Part shown: positions 6,583 to 27,535 of the stretch, one piece after another
Layout of the letters: each line of letters begins with the position of its first letter
Numbering within the stretch: position 1 is the stretch's first letter
DNA from: Chitinolyticbacter meiyuanensis
GTDB taxonomy: Bacteria > Pseudomonadota > Gammaproteobacteria > Burkholderiales > Chitinibacteraceae
DNA length: 32,000 bases
Assembly: GCF_008033135.1 (NCBI RefSeq)
Contig: NZ_CP041335.1
Span: 499,513-531,512 of the forward strand
Reading direction: 5' to 3'
Position numbers and translations under genes: made by a program
The notes under the pieces: model-generated
Seen by the model: the letters and a program-made list of their open reading frames with translations, nothing else
Told to the model about the DNA's origin: nothing
Database searches by the model: none

Positions 6583-7011
6583 CTAGGCTGTCCGGACAGT
6601 GGATCGTTGTCGATACAGCAGCGCGCTGGCAAGGATGAGCGCGCTCAGCAGCGGGGGCATGACGAAACCCAGAAAATAAACCCAAGAACGGAAAATGACC
6701 TCTGGCCGCCCGATAAGGGAAACGGGTACTGCCATGGCCAATATCGAAGCGATACAGATGGCCAGAACCGCTAGCGCCGGTCGCAGGCGAGCAGCGACGA
6801 GTATGTGGGTGGCACCTGCGGCCAGTGCGGAAGCGATGCCCACCGGATAAGAAAGCAGGAGTGCGAAGACGAACAACTCGAACGGATTCGACCAAGGGGA
6901 TTGAGGGGTAAAGATCGAAGCCAGTGTCACGACCAGCGCGCCAATCGGTGGGCCGATTAGGCAATAGATGGCGATCAATCTTTTCGAGGCGAGCTTGGAA
7001 ATTTCTGTCAC
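6583..7011 (-). CDS. hypothetical integral membrane protein (about 4 TM segments)
   Basis: 142-aa ORF made of consecutive hydrophobic helices in a lower-G+C stretch. No recognisable family. Confidence 0.45.
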   Translation of the reverse strand: MTEISKLASKRLIAIYCLIGPPIGALVVTLASIFTPQSPWSNPFELFVFALLLSYPVGIASALAAGATHILVAARLRPALAVLAICIASILAMAVPVSLIGRPEVIFRSWVYFLGFVMPPLLSALILASALLYRQRSTVRTA

Positions 7012-7075
7012 TCAACGGTGAATTGACGAGCCGCTTGCCGCAGGCAATCCAGCGAACGTCGTCTCGGCGGCGCGC

Positions 7076-7330
7076 TTATGAGTTCGCATCCTTCGGATGT
7101 GGTTCGTTGTTGCTGGCGCCCCGGAGATTCATCAGGAAGAGTCCCACCTGCAGGGCAATCAGTGCATACGCCTCGTCATGCCAGCCCCACGCTGCCCACA
7201 GGATGTTGCTCAGGATGAAACACCAAAATCCCCAGCGGCGTTTGACCTGGCCTGAGGAAGCGACCAGCCAGGCAGCGATCAACGTGGCAAGCATGGCCGG
7301 CCACTGCAAAGCACTCAAGAATGTCTCCAT
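7076..7330 (-). CDS. hypothetical small membrane protein (about 3 TM segments)
   Basis: 84-aa ORF (METFLSALQWPAMLATLIAAWLV...WGFWCFILSNILWAAWGW...), Trp-rich and hydrophobic. No family recognised. Confidence 0.4.
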   Translation of the reverse strand: METFLSALQWPAMLATLIAAWLVASSGQVKRRWGFWCFILSNILWAAWGWHDEAYALIALQVGLFLMNLRGASNNEPHPKDANS

Positions 7331-7846
7331 GGGGCAAGATTACCCCAGTGCCGCCGCCTAGTCGCTCCTCACCAGGCCGCATTTCAGAGCGCGGGCCAAG
7401 GCTTGAACGATACTGCGCCTGGCATGACCATTCGCCACAGCGGCGAACTGACGGTATCCGGCGTGGACAAGCGGATCGCTGACGAAGGATGAGAAATGGG
7501 GGCGCCAAGCTTCAGGGCAGTTGACCTTGGCGCTGCCGGTGCCCCCGTGGGCGGGCAAGGTGTCGGCACACAATCTGTGCCGTTAAGCATTTCCTGGCCG
7601 GAAATAGAGCATTCACTGGCCAAGTGGCGTCCTTGCACGCAAAGCCGCCGCAAACGAAGGCCGCTTTGATAGGGCCGCCAGCGTGAAGAAGACCGCAGAA
7701 AGCAAATCTTGGCCAATCGCTACAAAATAAAGCAATACATGGCCAAAAAACTCGCTGTATTTTCAAGTGAGATTTAAAACAATGTCCGAGAAGTGGCCTA
7801 TGCCTTGGAGCTCCTCGAACAACAAGGCTGCTCTATCGCATCTGGG

Positions 7847-8344
7847 CTAGCTGGCCCCAGATGAACTTGGCGGCTCCCGGCGCAGGTAAAGCTGGTCCGC
7901 CAACGCCTCGATCTCCCGAGACATGACCAACCGACTCCGCCAGTGGGCTGGAATGGCTTCAAATCCGTAGTAGGCACCTGCGAGCTGGCCGCAAATGGCT
8001 GCGGTCGTATCCGCATCATCGCCGAGATTGACGGCTTTCAAGATGGCCGTTTCGAAGTCATCGGTCGTCCAGAAGCACCACAGCGCCGCCTCCAAAGATT
8101 CCACCACATATCCGCTGCCATGAATCGCGCTTTCCGCTTTGCTACGTCATGCGCCCGCAGCCAGGGGTGCCGTCTTCGGCGCTATTGCCTGATAGCCATG
8201 CTGGAAGAGAAACGATTCCTTGTCCGCGCCTGTCAATGCAGCGCGCAGCTGCGTCGCAAACAAGCGCGTGCATTCGATGGCCTCTTCCGTGCCGTGGGTG
8301 GTTCGAGCGCTCTCGCCGGCATATTCAGTAACGAGCGCTCCCAC
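7847..8344 (-). pseudogene. ADP-ribosylglycohydrolase family gene, frameshifted and 5'-truncated
   Basis: Two consecutive minus-strand ORFs in different frames. 8147..8344 reads ...THGTEEAIECTRLFATQLRAAL.... 7847..8107 reads ...VVESLEAALWCFWTTDDFETAILKAVNLGDDADTTAAICGQLAGAYYGFEAIP.... Together they match the central and C-terminal conserved blocks of ARH/DraG-like proteins. The N-terminal third of the family is absent. Confidence 0.75.
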
Positions 8345-8370
8345 GAGACACCTTGTTAAACTGCCATTTC

Positions 8371-8401
8371 AAGAAAAAGCCCACTCCTTATTGGAGTGGG
8401 C
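8371..8401 (-). terminator. rho-independent terminator downstream of the crystallin-like gene
   Basis: Minus strand reads GCCCACTCC-AATAA-GGAGTGGGC followed by TTTTT. The stem is 9 bp and perfect, about 40 nt after the stop at 8441. Confidence 0.7.
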
Positions 8402-8440
8402 GGCCGTAGGGGCGGTTCGACACTCGGCGTAATGCGATAT

Positions 8441-9088
8441 TTAGAACAGGACGGGCCAAACAATAGGCCCACCGGTAGCATTGCAGCTGTATTGATTCAC
8501 TGCAGTGATTTTGTCATTCAGACCTAGATCGCTGATATTGCTGTACGAACCTGGGTAAAAGGTTCTCGTGGGAGCAGCTCGCCATGCGTTGTATTGCGCA
8601 GGGTCTTTAGGAGGGGCATCAATCCACACCTCCAGGCAGATGCGATCCGGCACCTTAATGGCTGTAGTGCGATCATTCATGAACCCACCGATGTTTGACA
8701 CGGCCACGTTCAAGGGCGGTGTATATGTTCGGCCACCTTCTGCGTTGAAGTCTTTGTGTTCATATAAAACTGCTTTTTGGCACGCTATTGAATCGTACAC
8801 GTCGATACTGGTAGTCCGGTCTTGCATAGGGTACGGCTTTAGGTCGGCCTGGCTTCCCAGAAAACTCGACGTCATGCCGCCAAAGTACTCATGCTCGTAA
8901 AGCGTGACACATTGATTGGACGCGACTGAAGAAATTTGGTCATTGATGTTGTCGTCCACACGTGCAACAGGCCCGTTCGCCACCAAAATGGCCTCTTGGT
9001 AGTCCTTGTGCTTATAGAAAACAGCTGCATTCGCCTGAATTGCGACCCCGGTCGCGAGTAGCAAGCAAATCATCTTTGCCTTATGCAT
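8441..9088 (-). CDS. secreted beta/gamma-crystallin-repeat protein (four Greek-key-like repeats)
   Basis: Start chosen at ATG 9088, where AGGA lies 8 nt upstream; an alternative ATG is at 9097. Signal peptide MHKAKMICLLLATGVAIQANA. Repeats show a Y-x-H-x-(Y/D)-F-x-G type signature (YEHEYFGG, YEHKDFNAEGG) and N/D-D-x-x-(S/T)-(S/A) motifs (NDQISS, QDRTTS, NDRTTA, NDKITA). Lower G+C than the flanks. Confidence 0.65.
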   Translation of the reverse strand: MHKAKMICLLLATGVAIQANAAVFYKHKDYQEAILVANGPVARVDDNINDQISSVASNQCVTLYEHEYFGGMTSSFLGSQADLKPYPMQDRTTSIDVYDSIACQKAVLYEHKDFNAEGGRTYTPPLNVAVSNIGGFMNDRTTAIKVPDRICLEVWIDAPPKDPAQYNAWRAAPTRTFYPGSYSNISDLGLNDKITAVNQYSCNATGGPIVWPVLF

Positions 9089-9569
9089 GACATCCATCCT
9101 TTCGAGATTATTTTGTGTTGTTTTGGCCTTCTTGGCCGCAAACATTCTAGGCAAGTAATTTGTTCGAAATAAATGTTCAAATATTCCAAAAAACTTGTTC
9201 CGTTCTTCGGGGGCATTACGGGCTATGGCGGGCACATTTACTTGTGCAGATATTTTCCACCTAGGTTGAATAGGTAAACAGGCCTGCCTTGATGGCAGAC
9301 AAGCACGCCGAAAGTAATAAGCGTGGAGGCGCAGCAGCTGCCCACCTATATAGGTGGGCTGATGCATCGTACGTAGAGCGGAATCGCGGCGGGGCATAGT
9401 TCGTGCTGCCAGCCGCACACTCGATCGGTGGTCGCGCGCTGAAGAACAAGGTGCTGCGGGGAATCGCTGCCGCAGTGTTCGTGGCCATCATCGCGTTTGA
9501 AAGCGGCTATTGCGCTTTCAATCGACGGGGAAGCCCAATACGGACAGTAGCTTTGTCTCGACCTAAGGG

Positions 9570-10064
9570 TTAGGGCGCACGTTCGGAACTCGGAGCGGCT
9601 TCATCGGGCTGGGCCCAAGCATTGACTCCCCAGGACTTGTCCAGCGACTCACGGCATGCTCGCGCCACGGCCAGCGATGCAAGCTGGAGTTCTTGCTCGG
9701 AAGCGCCGGCTGCGAGTGCATCCCCCATCCGTTTCATCGCTGCTTCGACTGTTCTGTTCTCCACCAATGCAAGTTCACCCCAGTAGAGCTCCCAGAAACG
9801 CGTACGTGCCTTCTTACCGGCCTCGGTTGTGCCAAGCGTGGCCACTTGCGATGCAACCTTCGTAGCCTCTGAATACAATGTCAGTTGTCGGTCCAGGAAC
9901 GGCTTCGTCGCCTCTATTCGACGCGTCTCGGCCAAGCGTTCGGCTTCGAGTCGTCGCACTTCTAGTTCCTGCATTGATTTATCTCGCCACTGATAGACCC
10001 CCCACAGGAAACTGCAGATTGCGCCCGCTACGGCGAGTATCTTTAGCCAGTTCTCAAGCGACAT
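9570..10064 (-). CDS. hypothetical protein with N-terminal membrane anchor and helical/coiled region
   Basis: 164-aa ORF with N-terminal TM segment LKILAVAGAICSFLWGVY followed by charged helical sequence. No family recognised. Confidence 0.5.
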   Translation of the reverse strand: MSLENWLKILAVAGAICSFLWGVYQWRDKSMQELEVRRLEAERLAETRRIEATKPFLDRQLTLYSEATKVASQVATLGTTEAGKKARTRFWELYWGELALVENRTVEAAMKRMGDALAAGASEQELQLASLAVARACRESLDKSWGVNAWAQPDEAAPSSERAP

Positions 10065-10408
10065 TGTTCGCCTTCTGAGGACGCTATGCTTCTGTGCGCC
10101 CTAACGTGGAAGTAACCGGCCCCGAAGCGCCAGCGAAGGGAACCCAAATGCACAGCATTTGGGCTGTCCGGTTGACCGAAAGGTTAGAAGTCAATCTGCA
10201 ACCCCATAAAGCGCAGCTGTGCGCCTCGCTCAGAGCGCTTAACAACAACTGGTTTGAACCGAAGCAAACGTGATCTTAGGGCCCCGTTTTTTTTTTTGCG
10301 CCTGCTCGACGCGTGGCAGGCGCGCAGCAGGCAAAACCCACGCGAGTCCTGGGCAGATGGTCACTTTATGCTTAACGGCACACAATCGAATGACTGGCGC
10401 TTTGCGTT

Positions 10409-10484
<76 letters not shown>

Positions 10485-16973: not shown

Positions 16974-17035
16974 GACGTACTCCGCTGGCAGATGGTGGCA
17001 GTATGGCAAAGCTGTCACTCAAGCCCAGAGGAAAC

Positions 17036-17356
17036 ATGGCCAATCTTTACGACCAGCTGCCGATTGCCTTGCCGGACGAGGTGTTTACCGATCTGGTGCG
17101 CCAGGACGGCGTGCGGATCGAACGCATCGTCTCCCATGGCCAGGCCACGCCGGATGGCGTGTGGTACGACCAGGCCGAATACGAGTGGGTGCTGCTGCTG
17201 GCTGGGGCCGCCGGACTGATGTTCGACGACGGCACGCCGCCGCTCGAACTCGCGCCGGGCGAGCATGTGCTGCTGGCGCCGCACCGGCGCCATCGCGTCA
17301 GCTATACCGCGCCGCAGACGGTGTGGCTGGCGGTGTGGTGGTCGCCCCAGGCCTGA
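17036..17356 (+). CDS. cupin domain protein
   Basis: Start chosen at ATG 17036, with GAGGAAAC upstream. The sequence ...RIERIVSHGQATP...YDQAEYEWVLLLAGAAGL...PGEHVLLAPHRRHRV has a small cupin_2-like architecture. Confidence 0.6.
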   Translation: MANLYDQLPIALPDEVFTDLVRQDGVRIERIVSHGQATPDGVWYDQAEYEWVLLLAGAAGLMFDDGTPPLELAPGEHVLLAPHRRHRVSYTAPQTVWLAVWWSPQA

Positions 17357-17357
17357 A

Positions 17358-17552
17358 TCACGGGCATGCCACCCGCCAGGCATCCAAGTTGCGCCGCTTG
17401 AGTACGCCGGAGAACTTCAGCTGCTTTGCCTGCGGGCAGAACTGGCTGGTGTCGCCGGTGAGATCGGTGTACTCGGCCATGAACACCGCCTTGCCGGCGT
17501 CGGTATAGGGCTTGAGGTCGGCGCACCAGCCGTAGTGCGCGCAGTCTTCCGT
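17358..17552 (-). pseudogene. 3' fragment of a GH114 (endo-alpha-1,4-polygalactosaminidase-like) gene cut off by prophage insertion
   Basis: Minus-strand reading gives EDCAHYGWCADLKPYTDAGKAVFMAEYTDLTGDTSQFCPQAKQLKFSGVLKRRNLDAWRVACP*, the expected C-terminal block of GH114 proteins. It continues the reading frame interrupted at 25686. The track ORF 17358..17663 extends artefactually into phage DNA. Confidence 0.75.
17548..17552. repeat. attL core (TCCGT)
   Basis: Shared pentanucleotide at the left host/phage junction. Host GH114 sequence lies to the left and phage sequence to the right. Confidence 0.6.
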
Positions 17553-17634
17553 TTTTGCCCACCTTTTCTTACATCGCCGTTCGTCGGCTTGTTGGTCTAA
17601 TCTGTCAATTGTCGCCAACAACATACAGAACAGC

Positions 17635-18234
17635 ATGCTGATTGGATACGCACGGGTTAGCACTGATCATCAAGTAACTGACGTCCAACGTCGGGAATTG
17701 CAGCGTGTTGGCTGCAAAGTCATCTACGAAGAAACGCGATCAGGCGCCACCATGCGCCGACCAGAACTAAGAGCAATGCTTGAACGTCTCCAGCCCGGGG
17801 ACGTTGTTCTAGTCTACAAGCTGGATCGCATCGCACGATCCCTGAAAGACCTGCTGACCATCATCGAGCACATCGAGGACTCGGGAGCAGAGTTCAAATC
17901 CCTGACCGAAATCATCGACACCACCCAGCCATCGGGACGCATGATCCTACAAATCCTCGGGGCATTTGCCGAGTTCGAGAAAGAGCTAACCCGGGAACGC
18001 ACGAAAGCTGGACTAAAGGCAGCCAAAGAGCGCGGTGTCCGGCTAGGCCGAGAGCGTGTGCTATCCGACGATGAGGCTGCAAAGATAGTAGCGCTATGGT
18101 CTAACGGATCATTCAACAAGCTGCAGCTATCCCGCAAATTCAACATATCTCGCCGAACCATCAGCAGAGCAATTGACCGCGCTAACCGCGAAGCTCAACC
18201 CGAGCTGTTCGCCCATGTCCTGGCCGGGGATTAA
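17635..18234 (+). CDS. small serine recombinase (resolvase/invertase family)
   Basis: 199-aa ORF MLIGYARVSTDHQ... with the catalytic Ser in the YARVST motif, ...LVYKLDRIARS..., and a C-terminal HTH (LSRKFNISRRTISRAI). Lies 82 bp inside the left prophage end. Confidence 0.9.
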   Translation: MLIGYARVSTDHQVTDVQRRELQRVGCKVIYEETRSGATMRRPELRAMLERLQPGDVVLVYKLDRIARSLKDLLTIIEHIEDSGAEFKSLTEIIDTTQPSGRMILQILGAFAEFEKELTRERTKAGLKAAKERGVRLGRERVLSDDEAAKIVALWSNGSFNKLQLSRKFNISRRTISRAIDRANREAQPELFAHVLAGD

Positions 18235-18433
18235 CCCGGCCACCCTACGGGCAAGGGACGGCATGGGCTCTACCCACATCCGCTACGACGACACGCCGCC
18301 CGGCTAGCAGAAAGACCGTCTGGCCCGTCACGGCCCGGTGTCGGCTTCGCCTGCCCCCGGCCGTGCCCAGCCATCGACGTAAAAACCACCCGGGCGGCTT
18401 TTCGTGACGGTCGCTTTATTCCGACAGACGGCT

Positions 18434-18462
18434 TTGCGTATTTATGTGACAGTCACTATAAT
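18434..18462 (+). promoter_or_regulatory. sigma70-type promoter of the H-NS-like gene with an operator in the spacer
   Basis: TTGCGT (18434..18439), a 17-nt spacer, then TATAAT (18457..18462). The spacer contains the GTGACAGTCAC palindrome (18446..18456). Confidence 0.55.
18446..18456. promoter_or_regulatory. GTGACAGTCAC palindrome, copy 1
   Basis: Perfect GTGAC-N-GTCAC immediately 5' of the TATAAT box. Confidence 0.6.
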
Positions 18463-18496
18463 TTGAGTGTGGGCAACGTGCGTTAAGGGGATTGAA

Positions 18497-19183
18497 ATGC
18501 GTGACAGTCACGATGACAAAACACTGCAGCTAGATGTGGGCGAAACACCAAAGAAACGCGGTAGGCCAGCACTGGGCGATAAGCCAATGACTGCTGCTGA
18601 GCGCAAAGCCAAATCCCGACTTCAAGCAAAGCGCACAGCCTTGAGCATCGACCTCGATAACTTGAAAACCTTAAGCGATGAACAACTCCTTTACCTAATG
18701 AGAAACATGGTAGGCATAGCTAGTCGCGCCAGGCTTGCATGGGCCGAATATGGTCGCCGTCACGAAATCCTTGTTTTCGATCCTAGCGATGCGGTGCGAG
18801 CTCAGATACAGAGCCTGAAGGCAGCGGAAAGCAGACTTCAAAAAGCTATCGAGGTGACTGTCACAAAAGAAGCGCCCGCTCCTGGAAAGCCGAATAAAGT
18901 GACTGGCACAAAAGAAAAGAAGGACGAAGCGGCCCCACCAGTGCAAGAACGCCTGCCGATGGCAGACTTGATCCGCGAAGCAAAGACGCGAGGTAAATTC
19001 GCGACTGTCACTAATTCAAAGCCTACACAGAAGAATAAAGCGGCAGTCACTAAAACGCCCGCTGCAAAGTACCAGCATCCTACCGAGGCAAACGCCACGT
19101 GGAGCGGGCGAGGGAAGAAGCCTCAATGGGTTATCGACTGGATGGCATCAGGTAAATCGCTCGAGGCTCTCGAGAGCAAATGA
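18497..19183 (+). CDS. H-NS family DNA-binding protein with N-terminal AT-hook-like motif (prophage-encoded)
   Basis: Start chosen at ATG 18497, with AAGGGG 6 nt upstream. The N-terminus has PKKRGRPALG (RGRP AT-hook core). The centre is helical and followed by a K/T/P-rich linker. The C-terminus AAKYQHPTEANATWSGRGKKPQWVIDWMASGKSLEALE matches the H-NS C-terminal DNA-binding domain (TW[ST]G[QR]G+xP...GKSL[DE]). Confidence 0.8.
   Translation: MRDSHDDKTLQLDVGETPKKRGRPALGDKPMTAAERKAKSRLQAKRTALSIDLDNLKTLSDEQLLYLMRNMVGIASRARLAWAEYGRRHEILVFDPSDAVRAQIQSLKAAESRLQKAIEVTVTKEAPAPGKPNKVTGTKEKKDEAAPPVQERLPMADLIREAKTRGKFATVTNSKPTQKNKAAVTKTPAAKYQHPTEANATWSGRGKKPQWVIDWMASGKSLEALESK
18501..18511. promoter_or_regulatory. 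GTGACAGTCAC palindrome, copy 2
   Basis: Perfect copy at codons 2-5 of the H-NS-like gene, 55 bp centre-to-centre from copy 1. Confidence 0.6.
18854..18864. promoter_or_regulatory. GTGACTGTCAC palindrome, copy 3 (inside the H-NS-like CDS)
   Basis: Perfect copy. A one-mismatch copy GTGACTGGCAC lies 45 bp downstream at 18899..18909, both followed by AAAAGAA. Another one-mismatch copy GCGACTGTCAC is at 19001..19011. Confidence 0.5.
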
Positions 19184-19245
19184 AGCTGACGCCGGCATGT
19201 AAGCACTCATGTCAGCAATGGCCACACTAATTTCTCTGAAAACAG

Positions 19246-19270
19246 AAAAGCCCGCGATCGCGGGCTTTTT
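19246..19270. terminator. bidirectional rho-independent terminator between convergent genes
   Basis: AAAA-GCCCGCGATCGCGGGC-TTTTT: a 16-nt perfect palindrome flanked by A and T runs, between the stops at 19183 (+) and 19283 (-). Confidence 0.75.
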
Positions 19271-19282
19271 GGTCTGTAGCTA

Positions 19283-19681
19283 TCAAGAATCAGCGTTTTT
19301 AACTCGTCGACGGCTTCGGCCGGGGTCCACCTGGTTGTTTTCCAATAGGTTGCATCTATCCAGATCAACCACACGCCGCCCACTCTCTTCACGCATCTGC
19401 CGCAGCAACTCAGCCTCAAATAGCTTCGTCAACCGTCCCATATGCCACGTAAACGCACTACAACCAACATAGGCGTATGAAGCAAAAGCAGCATGACGGC
19501 TGGACCAGTTGCAATAACGTCCATTGCGTCGGCGGAAGCGCCAATACAGAGAGCTGAGCTCGCCCCAAAACGCCCAAGCCATTACCGCCACAAACAGCAT
19601 AAGCAACACACCGAGCTGAAATCCCGCCCAAAACACCTGCATGGCGGCCTCAGCAAGTTGCTGCGTTTCCAATTCACTCAT
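19283..19681 (-). CDS. hypothetical prophage membrane protein
   Basis: 132-aa ORF with AGGAAAG upstream of ATG 19681, two hydrophobic segments near the N-terminus and a basic C-terminal half. No family recognised. Confidence 0.5.
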   Translation of the reverse strand: MSELETQQLAEAAMQVFWAGFQLGVLLMLFVAVMAWAFWGELSSLYWRFRRRNGRYCNWSSRHAAFASYAYVGCSAFTWHMGRLTKLFEAELLRQMREESGRRVVDLDRCNLLENNQVDPGRSRRRVKNADS

Positions 19682-19695
19682 TGTCTTTCCTTTTT

Positions 19696-19706
19696 GTGAC
19701 CGTCAC
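19696..19706. promoter_or_regulatory. GTGACCGTCAC palindrome, copy 4
   Basis: Perfect GTGAC-N-GTCAC 15 nt upstream of the ATG of the 132-aa ORF, directly 5' of its RBS. Confidence 0.55.
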
Positions 19707-19840
19707 TCAGCGGCAATCCGTCGGGCGAGGTGAACGTATCGGGCACTCAGCCCATGCGATGAAATCGATCCGCCGTTGCTCTGGCGTTCTATCGAGAGAT
19801 GCGCAGCCAGAAAGGATCAGCACAAGGAGAACGGCGCACC

Positions 19841-20833
19841 TCATACCGATGCCCCGCCGTGCTCAACTGGTTGTAGCTGCTGCTGCTGCTGCTGCGTCTG
19901 CTGCTGATCCGGTGCAAGGTGCGGCAGGAAGATGCCATTAGCGACGATGTTGCGGCACAAGTCATCGTCCATCTGAATCGGCGTGGCTTGATTGGTGTAG
20001 CACTTGCAGCGGTCGCCGATGGTGACGCATGCCTGAGGCGCCGGAATCTGCTGCGGCTTGGCCAAGTCGTCGTAGGCCGGGGCGGTGTGCGGGAGCCCGT
20101 CCAGGCGCGGCTGCTGTTTCTCGATCCACGACAGCTCTGGCTTTGCCATGGCGGTCTGCTGGGGTGTGTAGCCGGCAGGCATTGCTTGCCCTTCCGCCAC
20201 TTCGGCAGCTTGAGGATTCTGCAAGCGGTTTAGGTACTTGGTGGCAGTCCAGATCAGCCCGGCCAGCACGAACGGCAGTAGCAGCAGGAAGAAGACGCGG
20301 GGCGGTATACGGCGCTTATGCGTGTGCATCTCAGCCGACTTGTAATAGCTAAATACCTCCTTCGGGTATCCCCACTTGGTTTTGACGGCATCGGCGCGGG
20401 AGGTATCGCAGTTGAGCTTTACTTGAGCCCATTCGTTGAGGTTAGCGGCATGCATGCCAAAGGCCCGCATGACATGGACGTGGCGCCCCACGAGCGGCCG
20501 CACGTTGCCATCGAGTAGGCGCGGGCCTTGCGTGATCAGAAACAGATCGTGGCCATTGTGACGGTGCGTTTCGCACTTGGAGACATGCTCGGGCACTTGC
20601 GATCCATTGGCACGGGGCCGAAACACGCGCTGGCACTCATCAATGACGATGATGGCGCCGGGCGGTAGCTTGTGCCAATCCTCGGCTTTGTCGAGCTCAA
20701 GCCACGGCAACTTGAGATCCGAGATCCCGGAGTAATAAACCTGCCGACCCTCTTTTTCGGCCATCTGGTTCACATACCAGAGCGTATATAGCGTTTTCCC
20801 AGCGCCGGGCTGTCCAGTAATGAGCGTAATCAT
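19841..20833 (-). CDS. Zot-like / gI-type filamentous phage assembly ATPase
   Basis: 330-aa ORF MITLITGQPGAGKTLYTLWYV with Walker A, a Walker B-like IIVIDECQ, a central TM segment (VFFLLLLPFVLAGLIW) and a Q-rich C-terminus. Its start overlaps the upstream gVI-like gene (ATGA). Confidence 0.88.
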   Translation of the reverse strand: MITLITGQPGAGKTLYTLWYVNQMAEKEGRQVYYSGISDLKLPWLELDKAEDWHKLPPGAIIVIDECQRVFRPRANGSQVPEHVSKCETHRHNGHDLFLITQGPRLLDGNVRPLVGRHVHVMRAFGMHAANLNEWAQVKLNCDTSRADAVKTKWGYPKEVFSYYKSAEMHTHKRRIPPRVFFLLLLPFVLAGLIWTATKYLNRLQNPQAAEVAEGQAMPAGYTPQQTAMAKPELSWIEKQQPRLDGLPHTAPAYDDLAKPQQIPAPQACVTIGDRCKCYTNQATPIQMDDDLCRNIVANGIFLPHLAPDQQQTQQQQQQLQPVEHGGASV

Positions 20834-21144
20834 TTAGTCACCCACTTTTTAACGGTTTCGCCGGTCAGGCCGTTGAGTACCATTCGCGCGACGATGGCCG
20901 AAAAGACAATAGAAAGCACGACGTCGAGCTTCATCACGCCGAGCACCTGTAAAACACCCGGCGGCGCACCTGAAATCACGGATTTGACGTTGTTGAATAT
21001 GCTATCCAGACCAGTGCGCAGGCCGGTATAAGTCACGACGCCAACACCCATTGCAATAATGGCGCGACCGATAATCGTGCCAGCAGCACTGGCAAGGGCG
21101 CCAACAAGGGCGGGAACGAATACAGCAAGTAACGGTACTGGCAT
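20830..21144 (-). CDS. gVI-like minor coat protein (DUF2523-type)
   Basis: 104-aa ORF, very hydrophobic (MPVPLLAVFVPALVGALASAAGTIIGRAIIAMGVGVVTYTGL...VLGVMKLDVVLSIVFSAIVARMVLNGLTG), positioned between the gIII-like and Zot genes as in other inoviruses. Confidence 0.75.
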   Translation of the reverse strand: MPVPLLAVFVPALVGALASAAGTIIGRAIIAMGVGVVTYTGLRTGLDSIFNNVKSVISGAPPGVLQVLGVMKLDVVLSIVFSAIVARMVLNGLTGETVKKWVTK

Positions 21145-21146
21145 GA

Positions 21147-22619
21147 TTAACCCCTAAATACGATCAATGCGGCGATGATCCATGCACCGGCAACCATTAA
21201 TTCGCCGATGATTTGTAGCGTTGAACAGATTTTAGATAGCGCAATGGTGACGCTTCGACCCATTACCGACACCTGTATGTCTTGAGGGCAGGAGCGCGAT
21301 AACCATGCATCGGTTTTGATGGCGCCTTGGAAGCTAATAGCATCGGACGAGTCGCCAAAAATTTGCCCTTTCACTTCTTCGAGACCAGTACCATCCATGG
21401 CACCTTGCCCTTTTTTATACAGGTCGCCCTCTTCAATTGTTTTAGCGTCTTGATCAGCCCGGCAGTACTCTTTCCAATTCACCTTTGCTATTTCACAACT
21501 GACCGCATCATCTGATTCACAGGTAAATGCTTCGCATGAAGCAGTTACGCTGCTTTTCGTGCCTTTGCATTGCTGTGCATTGGGATTGTTTTTGCAGTAT
21601 TCCTCGGACGGTTGATCCGTCGTTTCCGTGCGCGTTGTCGTGCAACCTTCAGGCTTGGTGCACGTAGAACCGTCCGGCATCTTTCCACCATTGGGAACAG
21701 TCGTCGTCGTGGTGTCCGTAGTCTTTACACCAGTGCCGGTATCAGTAGTGCTCTTGGTTGTCGTTTCCGTTGTCGGTTGACCACTGTCGGTGGTAGTTGT
21801 CTTAGTCGTTTGCGTTGTCGTCGTTACCGGCGTATCAGGCGAAGGATTGACGCATCTCACTTCACCATTGACGTACCCGAACGACTTTCCCTTAGCCAAG
21901 CAATCCCCCTCGGTTGTTTTAGGAACCGGCGTGGGGCCGGGCGTAGGAGAAGGACCGGGCGTTGGATTGACGGGCGTAGGAACTGGCGTAGGCTGCGCCG
22001 CAGGGTCTAATTCACCCCTTTCGCACGCCTCACCTATTGAGCGCTTGGCAGTAGACGTGCACGTATAGAAACCATTTTGCTTATTGCCGCAATAGAGACC
22101 GCCCGATGCCGCATACAAACAACCGTTGTCGCAGCGCAATACAAAATCGTCTATCGAGCTAGATTTAAACGTCATGCGCCCACCCATTGTGCCCTCGGCA
22201 GGGCATGGCTTTGGCGTCGGAGTCGGTGCAGGCGTCGGAGTCAGCGCTACACATTGCCCAGTTACAGGATCAAGCGTTGATGGCGAATTACAGGCTAAAC
22301 CGTCATCCGACAACATGGCAGCGGTTACAAGGCCCGTCCAAGTAGAGCCCGTCCACCGATCAACAGAACAGCCACTGCCAGCGACCTGCTTCATGTATGT
22401 ATTCGTTTTGTACGAAGACGGCGTCGCCGCATACCAAGCTTCACATGCGCCCCAAGCAGTATTCCCATATGCAGTAATACCCGGTGACGAATATGGAGAC
22501 TCGTTTGAAACGGCTTTCCATTTGGCAAGTGCTGGATTTGCGATTAGCAGCAGTGCAATTAATCCAATACCCAATAGAAGGCGACGAGCACCGCAAAAAT
22601 ATAGAGCCATACCATTCAT
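21147..22619 (-). CDS. gIII-like adsorption / minor coat protein
   Basis: 490-aa ORF with a signal-like N-terminus, Cys-rich domains separated by P/T linkers (TPTPAPTPTPKP; PTPVPTPVNPTPGPSPTPGPTPVP), a Thr-rich tract and a C-terminal membrane anchor (IIGELMVAGAWIIAALIVFRG). It sits after the major coat gene. Confidence 0.65.
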   Translation of the reverse strand: MNGMALYFCGARRLLLGIGLIALLLIANPALAKWKAVSNESPYSSPGITAYGNTAWGACEAWYAATPSSYKTNTYMKQVAGSGCSVDRWTGSTWTGLVTAAMLSDDGLACNSPSTLDPVTGQCVALTPTPAPTPTPKPCPAEGTMGGRMTFKSSSIDDFVLRCDNGCLYAASGGLYCGNKQNGFYTCTSTAKRSIGEACERGELDPAAQPTPVPTPVNPTPGPSPTPGPTPVPKTTEGDCLAKGKSFGYVNGEVRCVNPSPDTPVTTTTQTTKTTTTDSGQPTTETTTKSTTDTGTGVKTTDTTTTTVPNGGKMPDGSTCTKPEGCTTTRTETTDQPSEEYCKNNPNAQQCKGTKSSVTASCEAFTCESDDAVSCEIAKVNWKEYCRADQDAKTIEEGDLYKKGQGAMDGTGLEEVKGQIFGDSSDAISFQGAIKTDAWLSRSCPQDIQVSVMGRSVTIALSKICSTLQIIGELMVAGAWIIAALIVFRG

Positions 22620-22638
22620 TTCATCCCCGCCTAGGCAA

Positions 22639-22668
22639 TAAAAAAGCCGCCGCCAGATAGCGACGGCT
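22639..22668 (-). terminator. rho-independent terminator after the major coat gene
   Basis: Minus strand reads AGCCGTCGC-TATCTG-GCGGCGGCT (9-bp stem with one G:U) followed by TTTTTTATT, about 20 nt after the stop at 22687. Confidence 0.75.
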
Positions 22669-22686
22669 CGACCGGACCAGATGGAT

Positions 22687-22887
22687 TTACAGCGCGCCGC
22701 GAATCCACTTGTAAACCTTGATGCCGACGTAGATCAGCACCACGGCAGCACCGATGACACCAACGGCAGTCGCTGCATCGGTAATGCCGGCCGTAATCGA
22801 TGCGGTGTCGATGGCAGCAAAGGCCGCAGAAGTCGCAGCCATGAAACCTGCAGCGACAGGAGCAAAAAACTTAATCTTCTTGAACAT
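22687..22887 (-). CDS. gVIII-like major coat protein precursor
   Basis: 66-aa ORF with signal peptide [24 protein letters not shown]. The mature part of about 42 aa has an acidic N-terminus (AIDTASITAGITD), a hydrophobic core (AVGVIGAAVVLIYVGI) and a basic C-terminus (KVYKWIRGAL). Confidence 0.8.
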   Translation of the reverse strand: MFKKIKFFAPVAAGFMAATSAAFAAIDTASITAGITDAATAVGVIGAAVVLIYVGIKVYKWIRGAL

Positions 22888-23164
22888 CGTCTTTTTCCTT
22901 GATTTGACGGGCTATGGTTCGCCATCCCCATGCTATAGCCCAAAGCACGAGAATGGATGTGAGCAAGGAATTGGCTTCCGCCATGCTCAAATCTGGTAGT
23001 GTTTTTAACGACTGAATTTCGGCATGTGTCATCAGAATAAAACCCGGGCATTGTTCTGGCGGCACATCCCGATAGACCAAGGTATTACCCGTGCCCGGCG
23101 CATCCAAAGGACCACAACTAGCCGGCCCTGTACCACATAGCTTTACTTCAAAGCAGGTGGGCAT
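22871..23164 (-). CDS. hypothetical small prophage protein with C-terminal TM segment
   Basis: 97-aa ORF with a Cys-rich N-terminal half and a TM segment LLTSILVLWAIAWGW. It overlaps the coat gene start by 17 nt and may be a minor coat or morphogenesis protein. Confidence 0.45.
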   Translation of the reverse strand: MPTCFEVKLCGTGPASCGPLDAPGTGNTLVYRDVPPEQCPGFILMTHAEIQSLKTLPDLSMAEANSLLTSILVLWAIAWGWRTIARQIKEKDDVQED

Positions 23165-23165
23165 A

Positions 23166-23225
23166 TCAATTTCTCGACTTCCAAATTACAACGCCAATCA
23201 CCAGAGCGAGACCGGCAATGCTCAT
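23166..23225 (-). CDS. possible 19-codon hydrophobic mini-ORF (gVII/gIX-like size class)
   Basis: Hand translation gives MSIAGLALVIGVVIWKSRN*. Its stop TGA is 1 nt from the next ATG (TGATATG). No clear RBS, so this is speculative. Confidence 0.2.
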   Translation of the reverse strand: MSIAGLALVIGVVIWKSRN

Positions 23226-23235
23226 TACAGTTAAT

Positions 23236-23246
23236 GTGACAGTCAC
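23236..23246. promoter_or_regulatory. GTGACAGTCAC palindrome, copy 5 (extended ATGTGACAGTCACAT)
   Basis: Perfect copy in the short spacer between the Rep stop (23267) and the mini-ORF. The dyad extends to 15 bp (23234..23248). Confidence 0.55.
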
Positions 23247-23266
23247 ATATAAAGCAATTTGCGGAA

Positions 23267-24529
23267 TCATGCGGCCACCCGTTGTGCATGCTTGTAATCG
23301 CGCATTGCCAATAGATCGCGAATATCCAGCGGATTCATATTGAATAGGCTGGAATTACGCACCGGCATGACGCAAAGGCGATTGCTCGATTTAAATGGCT
23401 TGAAATCGCGCGGCACTTTAAGCGCCTCATCGAGCAAATAGACATTGCTGGCAAGCCAAGAGACGCCCGCGTCAATCAGCTTCTTACGGTTTTCGTAGAA
23501 TTGCGTCTTTGAATAGTCCATGCGCACAAGCGATTCACCTTCGGCCGCTAAGCGCATCCAGAAGGCGAGCAGGTTATTTGCAGAACGCGTGCCATACACG
23601 GATTGCAGACGGCTACGGACAGCTTCGTGATTGCGGACGGTTTCCATGTCGGAATCCCCCTCTTTAAGCAACTTTTGAACTTCGGTCGAATAAACGGATT
23701 CTAGGTATTCGTCAGTAATTTCTGAAACGAGCGGGTAACGGTCGCCAAAGTCATAATTCAATTTTGGCGCATTGATTTGCACTTCTACCCGTAGCCGTGA
23801 ATCAGCTATCTTCGCAAGTGCGCGCAAGGTGCGATGAACTTTGTTAACTTTTCTTGATTCGGTCCATTCGGACATATTCTTGTATTTAGCATTAAGAATC
23901 ACCGGCAGGATACGGCGGATTCTCGGCAAATCATGGGCGCGGAATTCCGGGCCTTTGTGATACAGCCGCAATGTCGTCATTTCGCCCGGAAAATGCAACG
24001 AGTGGTCGCCATGCTGGCTTGATTTATCTTTGCGACGCGGAAATACGGCTTTCTTCAATGCGCGGAAATATTCGGCTATTGCATCTGGGCTGAGATAGAA
24101 CATATGCGCCCAGTCAATACGACGTACTTCCCAGTATTTTGCCGATGGCAATTCCCAATTCGGGTCTTGCTGCGGATTAAGCAGTAATTCGGTTGTCGAT
24201 ATCAGCAAAAAGCACAGGGTTTGCACGTCAACGGGATTGCCATAGACATTTTGGCCATATAGCACTTTATGAACCGAGCACTCCAAGAGAATGTACGGTT
24301 CGCAAGGTACTAATTCGCAGCGACCTTTGATGTTGACCCAATCATCGCGGCAGACACGGAAGCTAATGCGGCTGTCGTAGCTGCCATCCAATTTGCCTGT
24401 CGTCATTTCGTAGAGCATTTCGCCGCTACGCAGATCGATACCTTGTTTGAGCGTGCATTGCTGTTCGAGGTAATCGGCCAATTGCGGATTAATGATCGGC
24501 GAACGCAGCTTGATCGTATCGACGGCCAT
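23267..24529 (-). CDS. putative rolling-circle replication initiation protein (gII / Rep_trans-like)
   Basis: Start chosen at ATG 24529 (MAVDTIKLRSPI...), overlapping the upstream ORF stop (TAATG). 420 aa. Blocks such as TLRLYHKGPEF and SRLRVEVQI resemble the (l/i)YdK..E and R.E. blocks of phage/plasmid Rep proteins. Size and position also fit. Not verified by search. Confidence 0.6.
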   Translation of the reverse strand: MAVDTIKLRSPIINPQLADYLEQQCTLKQGIDLRSGEMLYEMTTGKLDGSYDSRISFRVCRDDWVNIKGRCELVPCEPYILLECSVHKVLYGQNVYGNPVDVQTLCFLLISTTELLLNPQQDPNWELPSAKYWEVRRIDWAHMFYLSPDAIAEYFRALKKAVFPRRKDKSSQHGDHSLHFPGEMTTLRLYHKGPEFRAHDLPRIRRILPVILNAKYKNMSEWTESRKVNKVHRTLRALAKIADSRLRVEVQINAPKLNYDFGDRYPLVSEITDEYLESVYSTEVQKLLKEGDSDMETVRNHEAVRSRLQSVYGTRSANNLLAFWMRLAAEGESLVRMDYSKTQFYENRKKLIDAGVSWLASNVYLLDEALKVPRDFKPFKSSNRLCVMPVRNSSLFNMNPLDIRDLLAMRDYKHAQRVAA

Positions 24530-24795
24530 TATTCGATCACCGCCACGTTGATGGCCTTGAGATCTGCCACGTATCTGGCCCAGCGCGTCGGGCCGTAGAC
24601 ATTGAGCACGCCCGGCAGACCTTGGTGGTCCATCAGACACCACGCCATGAACAGCTCGGTGGCGTGAGGCTCTTTGTGGAACTCGTCGATGCGTTGCTGC
24701 ACTGCCGGAGTCGTCCGGGCCATCGTCGAGAGGGCCACAGCGCGTAACCGCTCTTGCTGGTTCAGGGCCTTTTGGCGATGCGAGACACGTGTCAT
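24529..24795 (-). CDS. hypothetical prophage protein
   Basis: 88-aa ORF translationally coupled to Rep. No family recognised. Confidence 0.45.
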   Translation of the reverse strand: MTRVSHRQKALNQQERLRAVALSTMARTTPAVQQRIDEFHKEPHATELFMAWCLMDHQGLPGVLNVYGPTRWARYVADLKAINVAVIE

Positions 24796-24870
24796 GGGGC
24801 TCTAGCGCTGTAAGGAAGTCGGTTTTCCGGTAAACCGGACTGATTCGGGGTGCTACATCCCGAACCCCGA

Positions 24871-24899
24871 AAAATCCGCCCCGGTTGGGGCGGCTTTTT
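24871..24899 (-). terminator. terminator-like hairpin after the 102-aa gene
   Basis: CCGCCCC-GGTT-GGGGCGG (7-bp stem) flanked by A5 and T5. On the minus strand it is followed by a T run, about 40 nt after the stop at 24934. Confidence 0.5.
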
Positions 24900-24933
24900 G
24901 GGAAAGGTTTCCGCTGTTTTTCTGACGAAGCCT

Positions 24934-25242
24934 TTAAGCTGGCTTGTGTTGCGGCTGAGGATCGCCATAACCAATGACGATGGGCTGCAAACGGCCAAAG
25001 CGCATGACGTTGTCCGTCACCAGATCAAGCCAAGCGGGGAACTTGACCTTTTCGAACTGAGGAAGCGTCTCGACTGCGAGATCAATCTCGCCGGGCTCAA
25101 AACCAAAGCCCTCTTTGGTGAAGGCTTCAGTCGCTGCAGGCTGGATGGGCGACCCGATGATCAGGGTGCACATGTCGTAGGGTTTCTTGCTGGCTTTGGC
25201 GATGCCTTTTTGGCGGCGGACGCCCAGAACGAGAGCTTTCAT
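24934..25242 (-). CDS. putative ssDNA-binding protein (gV-like)
   Basis: 102-aa ORF with a good RBS (AAAGGAAG) and first in the leftward operon. The N-terminal pattern RQKGIAKASKKPYDMCTL resembles the x-KG-x-PY-x segment of small inovirus ssDNA-binding proteins. The assignment rests on size, position and this weak similarity. Confidence 0.4.
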   Translation of the reverse strand: MKALVLGVRRQKGIAKASKKPYDMCTLIIGSPIQPAATEAFTKEGFGFEPGEIDLAVETLPQFEKVKFPAWLDLVTDNVMRFGRLQPIVIGYGDPQPQHKPA

Positions 25243-25320
25243 GCTGCTTCCTTTGAACGGTGAACGCGAAACGGTTTAGGATTCGCAATGAACCACCGAT
25301 TAAAAGAAGGCTTACCCCGT

Positions 25321-25372
25321 TCAACCAGTGATTGAATGCAAGCCGATAGAACCATTCAACGAGTGATTGAAT
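25321..25372. promoter_or_regulatory. two 17-bp direct repeats (candidate operators) in the divergent control region
   Basis: TCAACCAGTGATTGAAT (25321..25337) and TCAACGAGTGATTGAAT (25356..25372) match at 16/17 and lie 35 bp apart. Each contains an (A/G)TTCAA...TTGAAT inverted repeat. They sit between the divergent starts at 25242 (-) and 25397 (+). Confidence 0.5.
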
Positions 25373-25396
25373 CAATACCCGTAAAGAGGCCCAGTC

Positions 25397-25729
25397 ATGA
25401 AGACCAGCATAGATTTGCTTACTGAGTACCTAAGAGAGCATGAACAAAACGACGCAGCAAAGCTCTGCAACGTAAGCGCAGCAGCCGTAAGCGCATGGAA
25501 GAAGCGAGGAAGGGTTAGCCCTGCAGCAACAGTCAAAATCGGACTGTTCCTAGACTATCCCTATGATTTTCTTGTGAAAATTGTTGCGATCGAACAAGAA
25601 ACGACCGAAGAGGGCCGCAATTTTTTGACTCAACTGGCCCATACGCTACGCCCAGCGATGAGGACCGAGACTAATGGGCAGAAACGTCCGTCATGGCCCA
25701 GTCGAAGTGCGAGACCAGATCGCCGGTGA
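25397..25729 (+). CDS. Cro/CI-like HTH regulator; the 3' end crosses attR into host DNA
   Basis: 110-aa ORF with RBS AGAGG 7 nt upstream and HTH-like NDAAKLCNVSAAAVSAWKKRGRVSP. Codons after position 98 are host-derived (antisense of GH114). Confidence 0.7.
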   Translation: MKTSIDLLTEYLREHEQNDAAKLCNVSAAAVSAWKKRGRVSPAATVKIGLFLDYPYDFLVKIVAIEQETTEEGRNFLTQLAHTLRPAMRTETNGQKRPSWPSRSARPDRR

Positions 25730-26348
25730 GCGCGGGCGCGTTCTTCTGGCCGATGGACAGCCCGCGTGCATGCGCCTCGTCCGCCAACCAGCGGTTGTAG
25801 GCCAACTGATCGGCGCGGGTCAACGTAAAGCCGGTGTCGTTGGTGTAGCCCTCGATATTGTCCGGCTCCACGCCGTCGAAACCCTTGTCACGGCACAGGT
25901 CCAGCCGCGCACGCATGATGGGCGCCAGCTCGTCGATGCGCCGGATGTCCAGCCAGCGCTCGCCCGCCCAGCTGGCGTAGTCCTTGCCGAGTACGGCGGC
26001 GGGGAAGGCGTTGCGGTCCGGCCGCCAGTTTTCCCAGGCGCCGGCGTTCAGGTAGCAGATCACCCGCTTGCCGCGCGCCTTGAGCTGGCTTACCAGCTGG
26101 CTGGGCGTATCGAACAGGTCCAGATCATAGATGGCAACGTCCTGCGTGCTGTCGATATTGCCGTCGAGCTGCCATTGCCAGCTGGCGCCGGGTGCGGGAA
26201 TCCAGCGTGGCTGCGGATATGGCGTCGGGGTGGGTGTGGGATTCGGATTGATCACGATGCCGACCTCGGCATTGCAGCCGGCCAGCAGCAGCGCGGCACC
26301 GGCGACGGGCGTGGCCAGCCACCACAGCAGGGTTCGAGGCGAAGACAT
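25671..26348 (-). pseudogene. 5' part of a GH114 (endo-alpha-1,4-polygalactosaminidase-like) lipoprotein gene, interrupted by the prophage
   Basis: Start chosen at ATG 26348, with AGGAG upstream. Lipoprotein signal MSSPRTLLWWLATPVAGAALLLAGC. Conserved blocks include WQWQLDG, VICYLNAGAWENWRPD, GFDGVEPDNIEGY and GLSIGQKN. The reading frame leaves GH114-like sequence after ...SHFDWAMT and stops 5 phage-derived codons later. Confidence 0.8.
25687..25691. repeat. attR core (TCCGT)
   Basis: Shared pentanucleotide at the right phage/host junction. Confidence 0.6.
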
Positions 26349-26389
26349 GGCGGTACTCCTGACGTTGCCGGCCAGCATACGCCGACGCG

Positions 26390-27535
26390 CTAGCGGTCGA
26401 CGACGCCTGGGCTGCGGAATGGCGAGTGCATTTCCAGTTCGTCCCGGTAGCCGGCGACGAGTTCGCGTTCCTGCGCGAGGAAGCGGCCGACGGCATCGGC
26501 AAAGCCGGGGTGGGCCAGCCAGTGGGCGGAATGGGTGACGACCGGCGAGAAGCCGCGCGCCAGCTTGTGTTCCCCCTGCGCACCGCCTTCGAACACGGCG
26601 ATGCCGTGGCGAATCGCCCAGTCTATGCCCTGGTAGTAGCACAGCTCGAAGTGCAGGCCCGGCACCCAGCCGGCCTGGTCCCATTGCGCGCCCCAGTAGC
26701 GGCCGTACAGGCGATCCGGACCCACCAGGTCAAGCGCACAGGCAATGGGCTGACCATGCCGGCGGGCAAGGAACAGCAACCACTGCTCCGGCGCGGCGGC
26801 GTGGCTACCGGTGAAAAAATCGGCGTTGAGATAGGGGCTGGAGCGGTGCTCGTGATAGGTCTGTGCATAGCAGCGCAGGAAGAACGCCCAATGCTCGGCA
26901 GTGATCGCCGCGCCGTGCAGGGCTTCCACCTCGACGCCGGCTGCTGCCACCTTCCGGCGTTCCTGGCGGATCTTCTTGCGCTTGTCGTGTGACAGGCTCA
27001 TCAGGAAGTCGTCGAAATCGTGCCACGCGGGATCGCGCTGCCAATGGAACTGCAGCTGTTCGCGTCGCGCCAGCCCGGCCGCGTCGGCCGCGGCGAGATC
27101 GTCGGCGTCGCAGAACAGCAGATGCAGTGACGAGGCATCCTGCTGTCGCGCCAGCTCCTGCGCCGCGGCGAGCAGCTGCAGCCGGTCTTCATGGCTGCGT
27201 GCCAGAAGGCGCGGGCCGGGCAGCGGCGAGAATGGGATGGCCGACACCAGCTTGGGGTAATAGTCGTGGCCGTGCTCGGCATAGGCACGCGCCCATGCCC
27301 AATCGAAGACATATTCGCCGCGTGAATGGGACTTCAGGTACAGCGGCAACGCGGCAGCGAGGCGCTCGTTGCGCCACAGCGCCAGGTGGCACGGTTGCCA
27401 ACCGCTGGCGGCACTGGCGCAGCCGCTGGCTTCCAGCGCGGCGAGAAAACCGTGCTGCAGCGCCGGATGCGGGCCGGCAAGGCGGTTCCAGTCCGCGGCG
27501 GGCAGTTCGGTGAGGTCGGTGTGGATGCGGATCAT
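26390..27535 (-). CDS. DUF482 / FemAB-like (GNAT-fold) family protein
   Basis: Start chosen at ATG 27535 (MIRIHTDLTELPAADWNRL...). Blocks HGFLAALEASGC, PLYLKSHSRGEYVFDWAWA and YYPKLVSAIPFSPLPGPRLL are typical of this family. It lies directly upstream of the GH114 gene on the same strand. Confidence 0.8.
   Translation of the reverse strand: MIRIHTDLTELPAADWNRLAGPHPALQHGFLAALEASGCASAASGWQPCHLALWRNERLAAALPLYLKSHSRGEYVFDWAWARAYAEHGHDYYPKLVSAIPFSPLPGPRLLARSHEDRLQLLAAAQELARQQDASSLHLLFCDADDLAAADAAGLARREQLQFHWQRDPAWHDFDDFLMSLSHDKRKKIRQERRKVAAAGVEVEALHGAAITAEHWAFFLRCYAQTYHEHRSSPYLNADFFTGSHAAAPEQWLLFLARRHGQPIACALDLVGPDRLYGRYWGAQWDQAGWVPGLHFELCYYQGIDWAIRHGIAVFEGGAQGEHKLARGFSPVVTHSAHWLAHPGFADAVGRFLAQERELVAGYRDELEMHSPFRSPGVVDR

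Follow-up and report, generated by a model that had tools for sequence, protein, structure and literature searches.

A filamentous prophage within a GH114 lipoprotein gene

We analyzed a 32-kb stretch of the 4.33-Mb chromosome of Chitinolyticbacter meiyuanensis (NZ_CP041335.1, GCF_008033135.1; positions 499,513–531,512), here called the window, to which all coordinates below refer unless another sequence is named. The window contains a lipoprotein gene of the GH114 family in two pieces, and between these pieces lies an apparently intact inovirus (filamentous phage) prophage. The prophage extends from 17548 to 25686, carries its structural and replication genes on the minus strand, and measures 8,139 bp when one copy of the core repeated at its ends is counted. 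It is supported by a shift in G+C content, flanks that are contiguous in the sister species Chitinolyticbacter albus (locus L001), and gene content. The G+C content is 53.4% in the prophage versus 64.4% in the remaining window, with a profile that falls from ~65%–69% to 49%–58% across roughly 17.5–25.7 kb. The core, TCCGT on the plus strand, is present at 17548–17552 (left attachment site, attL) and at 25687–25691 (right attachment site, attR). An initial annotation, made from the sequence of this DNA, had described a less G+C-rich element of about 8.1 kb with TCCGT at both junctions, and these features were borne out.

The 5′ piece of the interrupted gene (25671–26348, minus strand) encodes a 225-residue protein with the lipoprotein signal MSSPRTLLWWLATPVAGAALLLAGC (lipobox LLAGC) and matches positions 1–171 of the 231 in PF03537 (2e-67). 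It comprises 220 native residues ending in SHFDWAMT, followed by five unrelated codons (DVSAH) and a stop, and is annotated by NCBI as a 225-aa endo alpha-1,4 polygalactosaminidase (P0123). The 3′ piece (17358–17547, minus strand) consists of the last base of codon 221, codons 222–283, and the stop codon, and matches positions 166–231 of 231 in PF03537 (2.2e-13). Joining 26348–25687 to 17547–17358 in silico gave an in-frame protein of 283 residues with a single PF03537 match over positions 1–231 of 231 (290 bits), and residues 36–281 of this protein aligned with Ega3 (6OJ1/6OJB; 5e-58). It was only after this join that the gene combined a full-length model match with the catalytic Asp and Glu of GH114. 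Hence, the earlier proposal that a GH114 lipoprotein is cut after SHFDWAMT and resumes in the frame ending at 17358 is supported by PF03537, and the single full-length alignment across the joint that it called for was obtained with PF03537, Ega3, and the C. albus orthologue. The position given there for the joint (25687|17551) was wrong, as it would duplicate four bases; the right joint is 25687|17547. Similarly, the truncation is real, but the insertion removes 63 residues instead of the estimated 64 or so.

In Ega3, the nucleophile Asp189 and the acid/base Glu247 have been verified experimentally (PMC12054363). They align without gaps with Asp163 and Glu221 of the joined protein, and the two residues are 58 apart in both proteins (163/221 and 189/247). 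In the GAA codon for Glu221, GA belongs to the left piece and the final A to the right piece. Since the codon is split GA|A at the joint, the putative crossover dinucleotide would coincide with the opening GA of this catalytic codon; on the plus strand, this dinucleotide is TC (17548–17549 in attL and 25687–25688 in attR, the latter being the complement of GA). The 5′ piece retains catalytic Asp163 but loses Glu221, and Asp stands at that position in the 225-aa product. Lacking Glu221 and the last 63 residues, this product should be inactive, and it is predicted to be the most that the lysogen makes of this GH114 enzyme.

An uninterrupted form of the gene was found in related genomes by an orthologue scan covering one genome per species. 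Chitinolyticbacter albus has an intact GH114 orthologue (84% identity over residues 1–283) at the syntenic place, and the window segments 17070–17561 and 25687–26612 map to adjacent C. albus segments (L001, 11143–10652 and 10665–9739). Across the point at which the window is interrupted, the C. albus gene reads ...YDWAITEDCAYYDWCADLKPY... A second intact allele (81% identity) is present in a Chitinolyticbacter metagenome-assembled genome. The uninterrupted allele that the initial annotation had proposed to look for thus exists, with contiguous flanks.

The cupin gene downstream is syntenic with C. albus. The upstream gene belongs to FemAB_like (PF04339), a family formerly named DUF482, and only its last 69 codons are recognizable in C. 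albus. The DUF482-GH114 operon suggested earlier therefore holds as to the identity of the upstream gene, although the arrangement is only partly conserved. A second GH114 paralogue, P0125, lies elsewhere in the C. meiyuanensis genome; it is 418 aa long and 77% identical, and it has an additional PF03995 domain at the N terminus. C. albus also has two GH114 copies (L001 and L002). The paralogue may back up the disrupted gene functionally. Its presence makes any matrix phenotype uncertain and weakens the earlier suggestion, offered as an inference, that the insertion could alter exopolysaccharide turnover and be linked to biofilm.

The prophage carries the genes expected of an inovirus (Tubulavirales): a Zot ATPase, a small coat protein, and the order Rep-coat-pIII-pVI-pI, within a length in the range of 5–15 kb. 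All of the following genes are on the minus strand. The rolling-circle replication initiator (pII-like Rep; 23267–24529, 420 aa) matches PF05144 (5e-11), PF05155, and phrog_702 (2e-32); its start is an ATG overlapping the upstream stop codon, and the longest open reading frame (ORF) extends to 24643. The pVIII-like major coat protein (22687–22887, 66 aa; PF05356, 1e-15) has a signal peptide, a hydrophobic core, and a basic C-terminus. The gene is followed, 18 bp on, by an intrinsic terminator-like hairpin (22669–22644) with an 11-bp stem, 7 G-C pairs, and a T-run. Next come a pIII-like adsorption protein (21147–22619, 490 aa; phrog_4352, 8e-53 over residues 31–490), assigned also by its position and sequence features (a signal peptide, Pro/Thr-rich linkers, and a C-terminal membrane anchor), and a pVI-like minor coat protein of the DUF2523 family (20830–21144, 104 aa; PF10734, 1.5e-15; phrog_1242). 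The pI/Zot-like assembly ATPase (19841–20833, 330 aa; PF05707, 4e-23; phrog_197, 2e-81) has the Walker A motif GQPGAGKT and is 40%–42% identical to its counterparts in Ralstonia phages PE226 (42%) and p12J. None of the Rep, RstB-like (described below), coat, pIII-like, DUF2523, and Zot genes is interrupted. No ORF of the element matched a secretin, and virion export would require a secretin of the host. The Rep, coat, gIII-like, DUF2523, and Zot assignments of the initial annotation, as well as its strong terminator after the coat gene and its lack of a secretin gene, agree with these results from Pfam and PHROG profile searches and hairpin inspection. All three outcomes named there as refuting the call (fragments that fail to align colinearly, two independent intact genes in relatives, or failing profile assignments) were thus checked, and each result favored the insertion.

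The serine recombinase and its proposed attachment site

The first gene inside the left end of the prophage (17635–18234, plus strand; WP_148714027.1) encodes a small serine recombinase of 199 residues that is Gin/Hin-like (PF00239, 8e-46; phrog_125 DNA invertase, 4e-66). Over 96% of its length, it shares 53% identity with the resolvase of Ralstonia phage Rs551 (φRSM type). Its best homologue of solved structure is Gin (4M6F; 3e-38 over residues 1–159), and gamma-delta resolvase matched at 1e-27. By analogy with the φRSM phages, this protein is presumed to be both the integrase and the excisionase of the element.

Rejoining the prophage ends reconstructs a candidate phage attachment site (attP), GGGCAGAAACG-TC-CGTTTTTGCCC, which is a 24-bp dyad with 10 of 11 arm positions complementary. 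Its left arm, GGGCAGAAACG, is located at 25676–25686 and its right arm, CGTTTTTGCCC, at 17550–17560 (both plus strand), the latter ~75 bp upstream of the recombinase start codon. The reconstructed site as a whole lies ~85 bp upstream of the recombinase gene, with a helix-turn-helix (HTH) repressor-like gene on its other side. On the other strand, the inner 12 bp read AAACG-GA-CGTTT and agree with native gix (AAACC-GA-GGTTT) in 10 of 12 bases, with the same GA in the center. The pattern AAASSWWSSTTT is important for Gin (PMC5175349). When its central WW was relaxed to NN (AAASSNNSSTTT), the pattern occurred once in the circularized phage, exactly at the joint, and was absent from the integrated 32-kb window (~0.2 expected per 32 kb); the gix-like core that fits it, AAACGTCCGTTT, arises only on circularization. 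Besides attL and attR, which are in direct orientation, no second attP-like site was found inside the phage or the window. Dyad symmetry and homology with Gin together place the crossover at the TC/GA dinucleotide, and we infer that strands were exchanged at the central TC (GA on the gene strand).

These features suggest a simple route of integration and excision. The 199-aa serine recombinase of the phage would have catalyzed integration, acting on the 24-bp attP, and exchange at TC would split the Glu221 codon of the GH114 gene (equivalent to Ega3 Glu247, the general acid/base). The same enzyme could reverse the reaction if the phage is still active, and excision would then restore the GH114 gene exactly, without a scar. 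The circular junction is predicted to read ...AATGGGCAGAAACGTCCGTTTTTGCCCACC..., with the attP-bearing product reading ...CTAATGGGCAGAAACGTCCGTTTTTGCCCACCTTTT..., and the predicted scarless excision product across 17450/25800 is GACTGGGCCATGACGGAAGACTGCGCG. Overall, we consider it quite likely that an intact inovirus prophage was placed in the GH114 gene by its own Gin-like serine recombinase, at a gix-like attP and with a TC crossover in the Glu221 codon.

Several observations weigh against this interpretation. The phage is carried by one genome only, and no same-species empty site was found, with a single C. meiyuanensis genome in the protein collection and best intact alleles that are 81%–84% identical. 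A circular form, a close relative, and a second lysogen were likewise not found in the collections searched: the exact attP 24-mer was absent from IMG/VR, an attP/attL 22-mer was absent from the JGI metagenomes, and Rep, Zot, and recombinase queries against IMG/VR and the metagenomes returned only relatives of ≤45% identity. In all seven relatives examined, the recombinase gene borders a tRNA-Ser 3′ end and not a protein-coding gene. The likeness of the bacterial site (attB) to attP beyond the 5-bp core is at chance level, which leaves target specificity unaccounted for. Gin/Hin enzymes of the classical kind are enhancer-dependent DNA invertases, and the integrase role proposed here rests on the φRSM analogy. 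Lastly, the attP dyad is also a terminator-like hairpin, and its symmetry alone is no proof of a recombinase site. In the circular form, it folds as an 11-bp stem with a U-rich tail (25668–25691 joined to 17553–17577; −17.6 kcal/mol, z = −4.7), and neither attL nor attR folded better than shuffled sequence.

The attP dyad may have two roles, as a recombinase site and as a terminator that separates the HTH gene from the recombinase gene. We speculate that integration would split this terminator and put the recombinase behind the host cupin gene. In the lysogen, the cupin gene (17003–17356, plus strand) points at the recombinase gene, and no terminator-like site was found between the two in the part scanned (from 17300).

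Recombinases 54%–60% identical to that of the present phage occur at five other inovirus loci, with the gene at the prophage or contig end in each. In all seven relatives with readable junctions (Rs551, L082, L083, L085, L086, L088, and L089), a tRNA-Ser 3′ end adjoins the recombinase gene or the far junction. When a crossover model for the whole family was anchored on these tRNA-Ser ends, the tRNA-side sites showed low dyad symmetry (2–4 of 11 positions) and putative central dinucleotides that differ. The attP right arm agrees with tRNA-Ser 3′ ends in 7 of 11 bases, a match that is no more than suggestive. As a separate observation, the L086 prophage (Chitinimonas taiwanensis) has a full tRNA-Ser(GGA) at one end and a ~28-bp copy of its 3′ end, with two mismatches, at the other (9894–9925 and 17360–17450 of that locus); the orientation of this tRNA relative to the recombinase gene is opposite to that in the other relatives.

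It is possible, although we hold it to be somewhat less probable than not, that the same phage and recombinase used the GH114 gene as an accidental secondary site (pseudo-attB), so that gene loss was collateral and non-adaptive. The tRNA-Ser 3′ ends in all seven relatives speak for such an accident, as do the common core of just 5 bp and the sequence of both C. albus orthologues, which have ACCGA here and not ACGGA. Moreover, attB and attP match at 15 of 24 positions, a score that two more sites reach within 24 kb of host sequence; extended attB/attP similarity was for this reason rejected as evidence of targeting. Nonetheless, the reconstructed attP region showed no likeness to tRNA-Ser above shuffled controls, which argues that tRNA-Ser is no obvious primary site of this phage. 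A GA dinucleotide that belongs to a conserved codon for a catalytic Glu would also be evolutionarily stable as a target, and serine recombinases require no identity beyond the central dinucleotide.

An intact and recombinase-placed prophage must also be distinguished from a fixed, immobile remnant that merely looks complete, which we judge unlikely. A remnant would be in keeping with the absent secretin gene, the failure to find a circular form in the public data searched (IMG/VR and JGI metagenomes), and a short Zot (330 aa, compared with 284–408 aa in relatives with recorded contexts). However, the core ORFs are all open and have good family scores, both halves of the att site and the recombinase are intact, and the lack of a secretin is common among inoviruses.

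The prophage might also be read as a reversible switch ("active lysogeny"), in which regulated excision restores GH114 and couples the state of the phage to exopolysaccharide turnover. Excision at the core would leave an intact, in-frame gene without a scar, neither gene piece has suffered additional damage and both retain 84% identity to the orthologue, and the recombinase gene lies behind the same-strand cupin gene as described above. A recent insertion would equally leave intact pieces, and the genome holds a second GH114 paralogue; we regard the switch as rather improbable. Slightly more doubtful still is its most specific form, in which a φRSM-type recombinase was retargeted from tRNA-Ser to the GA of the GH114 Glu codon as a reversible on/off switch, with excision possibly driven by read-through from the cupin gene. 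If true, a reversible GH114 switch would be the first "active lysogeny" described for an inovirus.

Transposition with a 5-bp target duplication, which the flanking 5-bp direct repeat resembles, or integration by host XerCD at a dif-like site, each without the serine recombinase, is very improbable, as the element ORFs include no transposase, the symmetry axis falls in TC, 1.5 bp off the middle of TCCGT (which fits a 2-bp staggered serine-recombinase cut and not terminal inverted repeats), and no dif-like site was found in the window with up to 3 mismatches allowed to the dif central region.

Further genes and sites of the prophage and the window

The remaining ORFs of the prophage complete a minus-strand series in the order RstB-like, 88-aa ORF, Rep, small ORFs, coat, pIII, DUF2523, Zot, 45-aa ORF, and 132-aa ORF. 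The RstB-like protein (24934–25242, 102 aa; PF07459, 9e-8; phrog_929, 2e-16) is probably a single-stranded-DNA-binding protein, and the 88-aa ORF upstream of Rep (24529–24795) has no family match. Two small ORFs of 97 aa (22871–23164; phrog_4644, 4.5e-9) and 34 aa (23166–23270; weak match to phrog_35299) occupy the position of pVII/pIX-like small virion proteins. A 45-aa ORF (19707–19844) overlaps the Zot stop codon and has a lipobox (LSGC) without a family match; this putative lipoprotein may be a small accessory to assembly or exclusion in a secretin-less phage. The last gene of the operon, a 132-aa ORF (19283–19681), has no Pfam or PHROG match and is followed by a terminator-like hairpin (19269–19246). 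A nucleotide search with the whole prophage against deposited phages returned no match.

The lysogeny module proposed in the initial annotation can be identified as the Gin-like small serine recombinase, the HTH protein, and an H-NS-like protein. The HTH repressor-like ORF (25397–25729, plus strand; phrog_4441, 8e-7; phrog_35) reads across attR, such that the protein changes from 127 aa in the circular form to 110 aa in the integrated form and its last 29 phage residues are replaced by 12 host-encoded ones. Between this gene and the divergent RstB-like gene, two 21-nt direct repeats 35 bp apart (25317–25372) are probable repressor operators. They read CC(G/A)TTCAAC(C/G)AGTGATTGAAT, and each holds the inverted repeat ATTCAA-N7-TTGAAT. 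The third protein (18467–19183, plus strand, 238 aa), from an accessory or lysogeny gene, has an H-NS C-terminal DNA-binding domain (PF00816, 1e-15, residues 200–236) and may serve as a silencer carried by the phage. Its N-terminal part matches only phrog_6334, an uncharacterized phage family, and the relatives examined do not obviously carry such a gene. A palindrome, GTGACNGTCAC, is present in the window in 8 copies (≤1 mismatch), all 8 of which are inside the prophage (18404–19011, 19696–19706, and 23236–23246), compared with ~0.6 expected per window and 0 of 100 shuffles that reached 8. Six of the copies are concentrated in the H-NS-like gene and the sequence upstream of it, and the palindrome may be an operator or iteron.

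Elsewhere in the window, an Rfam scan detected only a tRNA, which is a tRNA-Ala(CGC) on the minus strand (10409–10484). It is abutted by a low-G+C stretch (51%–60%) at ~6500–10400, and the window is syntenic with C. albus only from 10395 on. Larger ORFs (≥110 aa) in this stretch had no Pfam match except for a sub-threshold beta/gamma-crystallin match at 8441–9418. The stretch is probably another genomic island, inserted at tRNA-Ala.

Significance and comparison with known systems

Filamentous prophages that integrate by a small serine recombinase are a known kind, and both the examples in the literature consulted and the relatives considered here target tRNA-Ser; the present prophage differs in its attachment site. 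What is added here is the integrase type, a rebuilt gix-like attP, the hit in a catalytic codon, and the contrast with relatives that target tRNA-Ser. It would follow that a φRSM-type integration unit can use a 5-bp core in a coding gene, at a codon kept constant by protein function. Boundary finders that look for direct repeats of at least 10 bp, as used in a large survey of inoviruses (PMC6813254), miss prophages with such short cores. With its defined attP/attB pair, this compact natural recombinase of the Gin type is also a candidate integration tool. One of the host's two GH114 genes would be inactivated, which matters only if the enzyme is non-redundant in matrix turnover.

The host protein, once rejoined, shares its whole catalytic domain and the Asp/Glu pair with Ega3, a GH114 endo-alpha-1,4-galactosaminidase of Aspergillus fumigatus. 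Unlike Ega3, it is a bacterial lipoprotein, and its gene is split in this genome. Bacterial GH114 enzymes are uncharacterized according to PMC12054363.

Among filamentous phages, the integration module most resembles that of φRSM1, φRSM3, and φRs551 (Ralstonia solanacearum, Habenivirus), with which the present phage shares a small serine recombinase and the lack of a secretin. Int of φRSM belongs to the resolvase/invertase subfamily, and its attP lies between the Int and repressor genes (PMC4471427). It has been shown experimentally to catalyze integration and excision (Askora et al. 2011, as summarized in PMC4471427). The same order of a repressor-like gene, attP, and recombinase, on the strand opposite to the structural genes, is found here, with attP ~85 bp upstream of the recombinase gene compared with 53 bp in Rs551. 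However, the φRSM core is at least 13 bp long and identical to the 3′ end of tRNA-Ser, such that the tRNA is rebuilt on integration (PMC4471427), whereas the present core of 5 bp lies inside a protein-coding gene that is destroyed, and attB is not a tRNA-Ser. The HTH protein had no detectable homology to the Rs551 ORF14 repressor, and the structural module is nearer to PE226 and p12J than to the φRSM type, as judged from Zot.

With Gin/gix and Hin/hix, the element shares the homologous catalytic domain and the gix-like core. Unlike in those systems, its sites are direct and not inverted, there is no invertible segment, and the outer half-site bases are GCCC, compared with GGA in the native gix core (PMC5175349). 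An attP inside a regulator ORF is described for XacF1 (PMC5666396) and for φRSS0, in ORF13 (PMC4471427). The present attP likewise lies in the 3′ part of the HTH ORF, which accounts for the change of its C-terminus on integration. XacF1 and φRSS0 use host XerCD at dif, but the present attP is not dif-like in the manner of CTXφ, φRSS1, and XacF1.

Prophages that disrupt a gene and excise precisely include SPβ in spsM and the skin element in sigK of Bacillus, as well as φ10403S in comK of Listeria. These elements belong to or derive from tailed phages, use large serine or tyrosine recombinases, and have been shown to excise in a regulated manner, whereas the element described here is a filamentous phage with a small recombinase and a predicted excision. 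SPβ combines a serine recombinase with a polysaccharide-related target gene, and both of these features recur in the C. meiyuanensis prophage.

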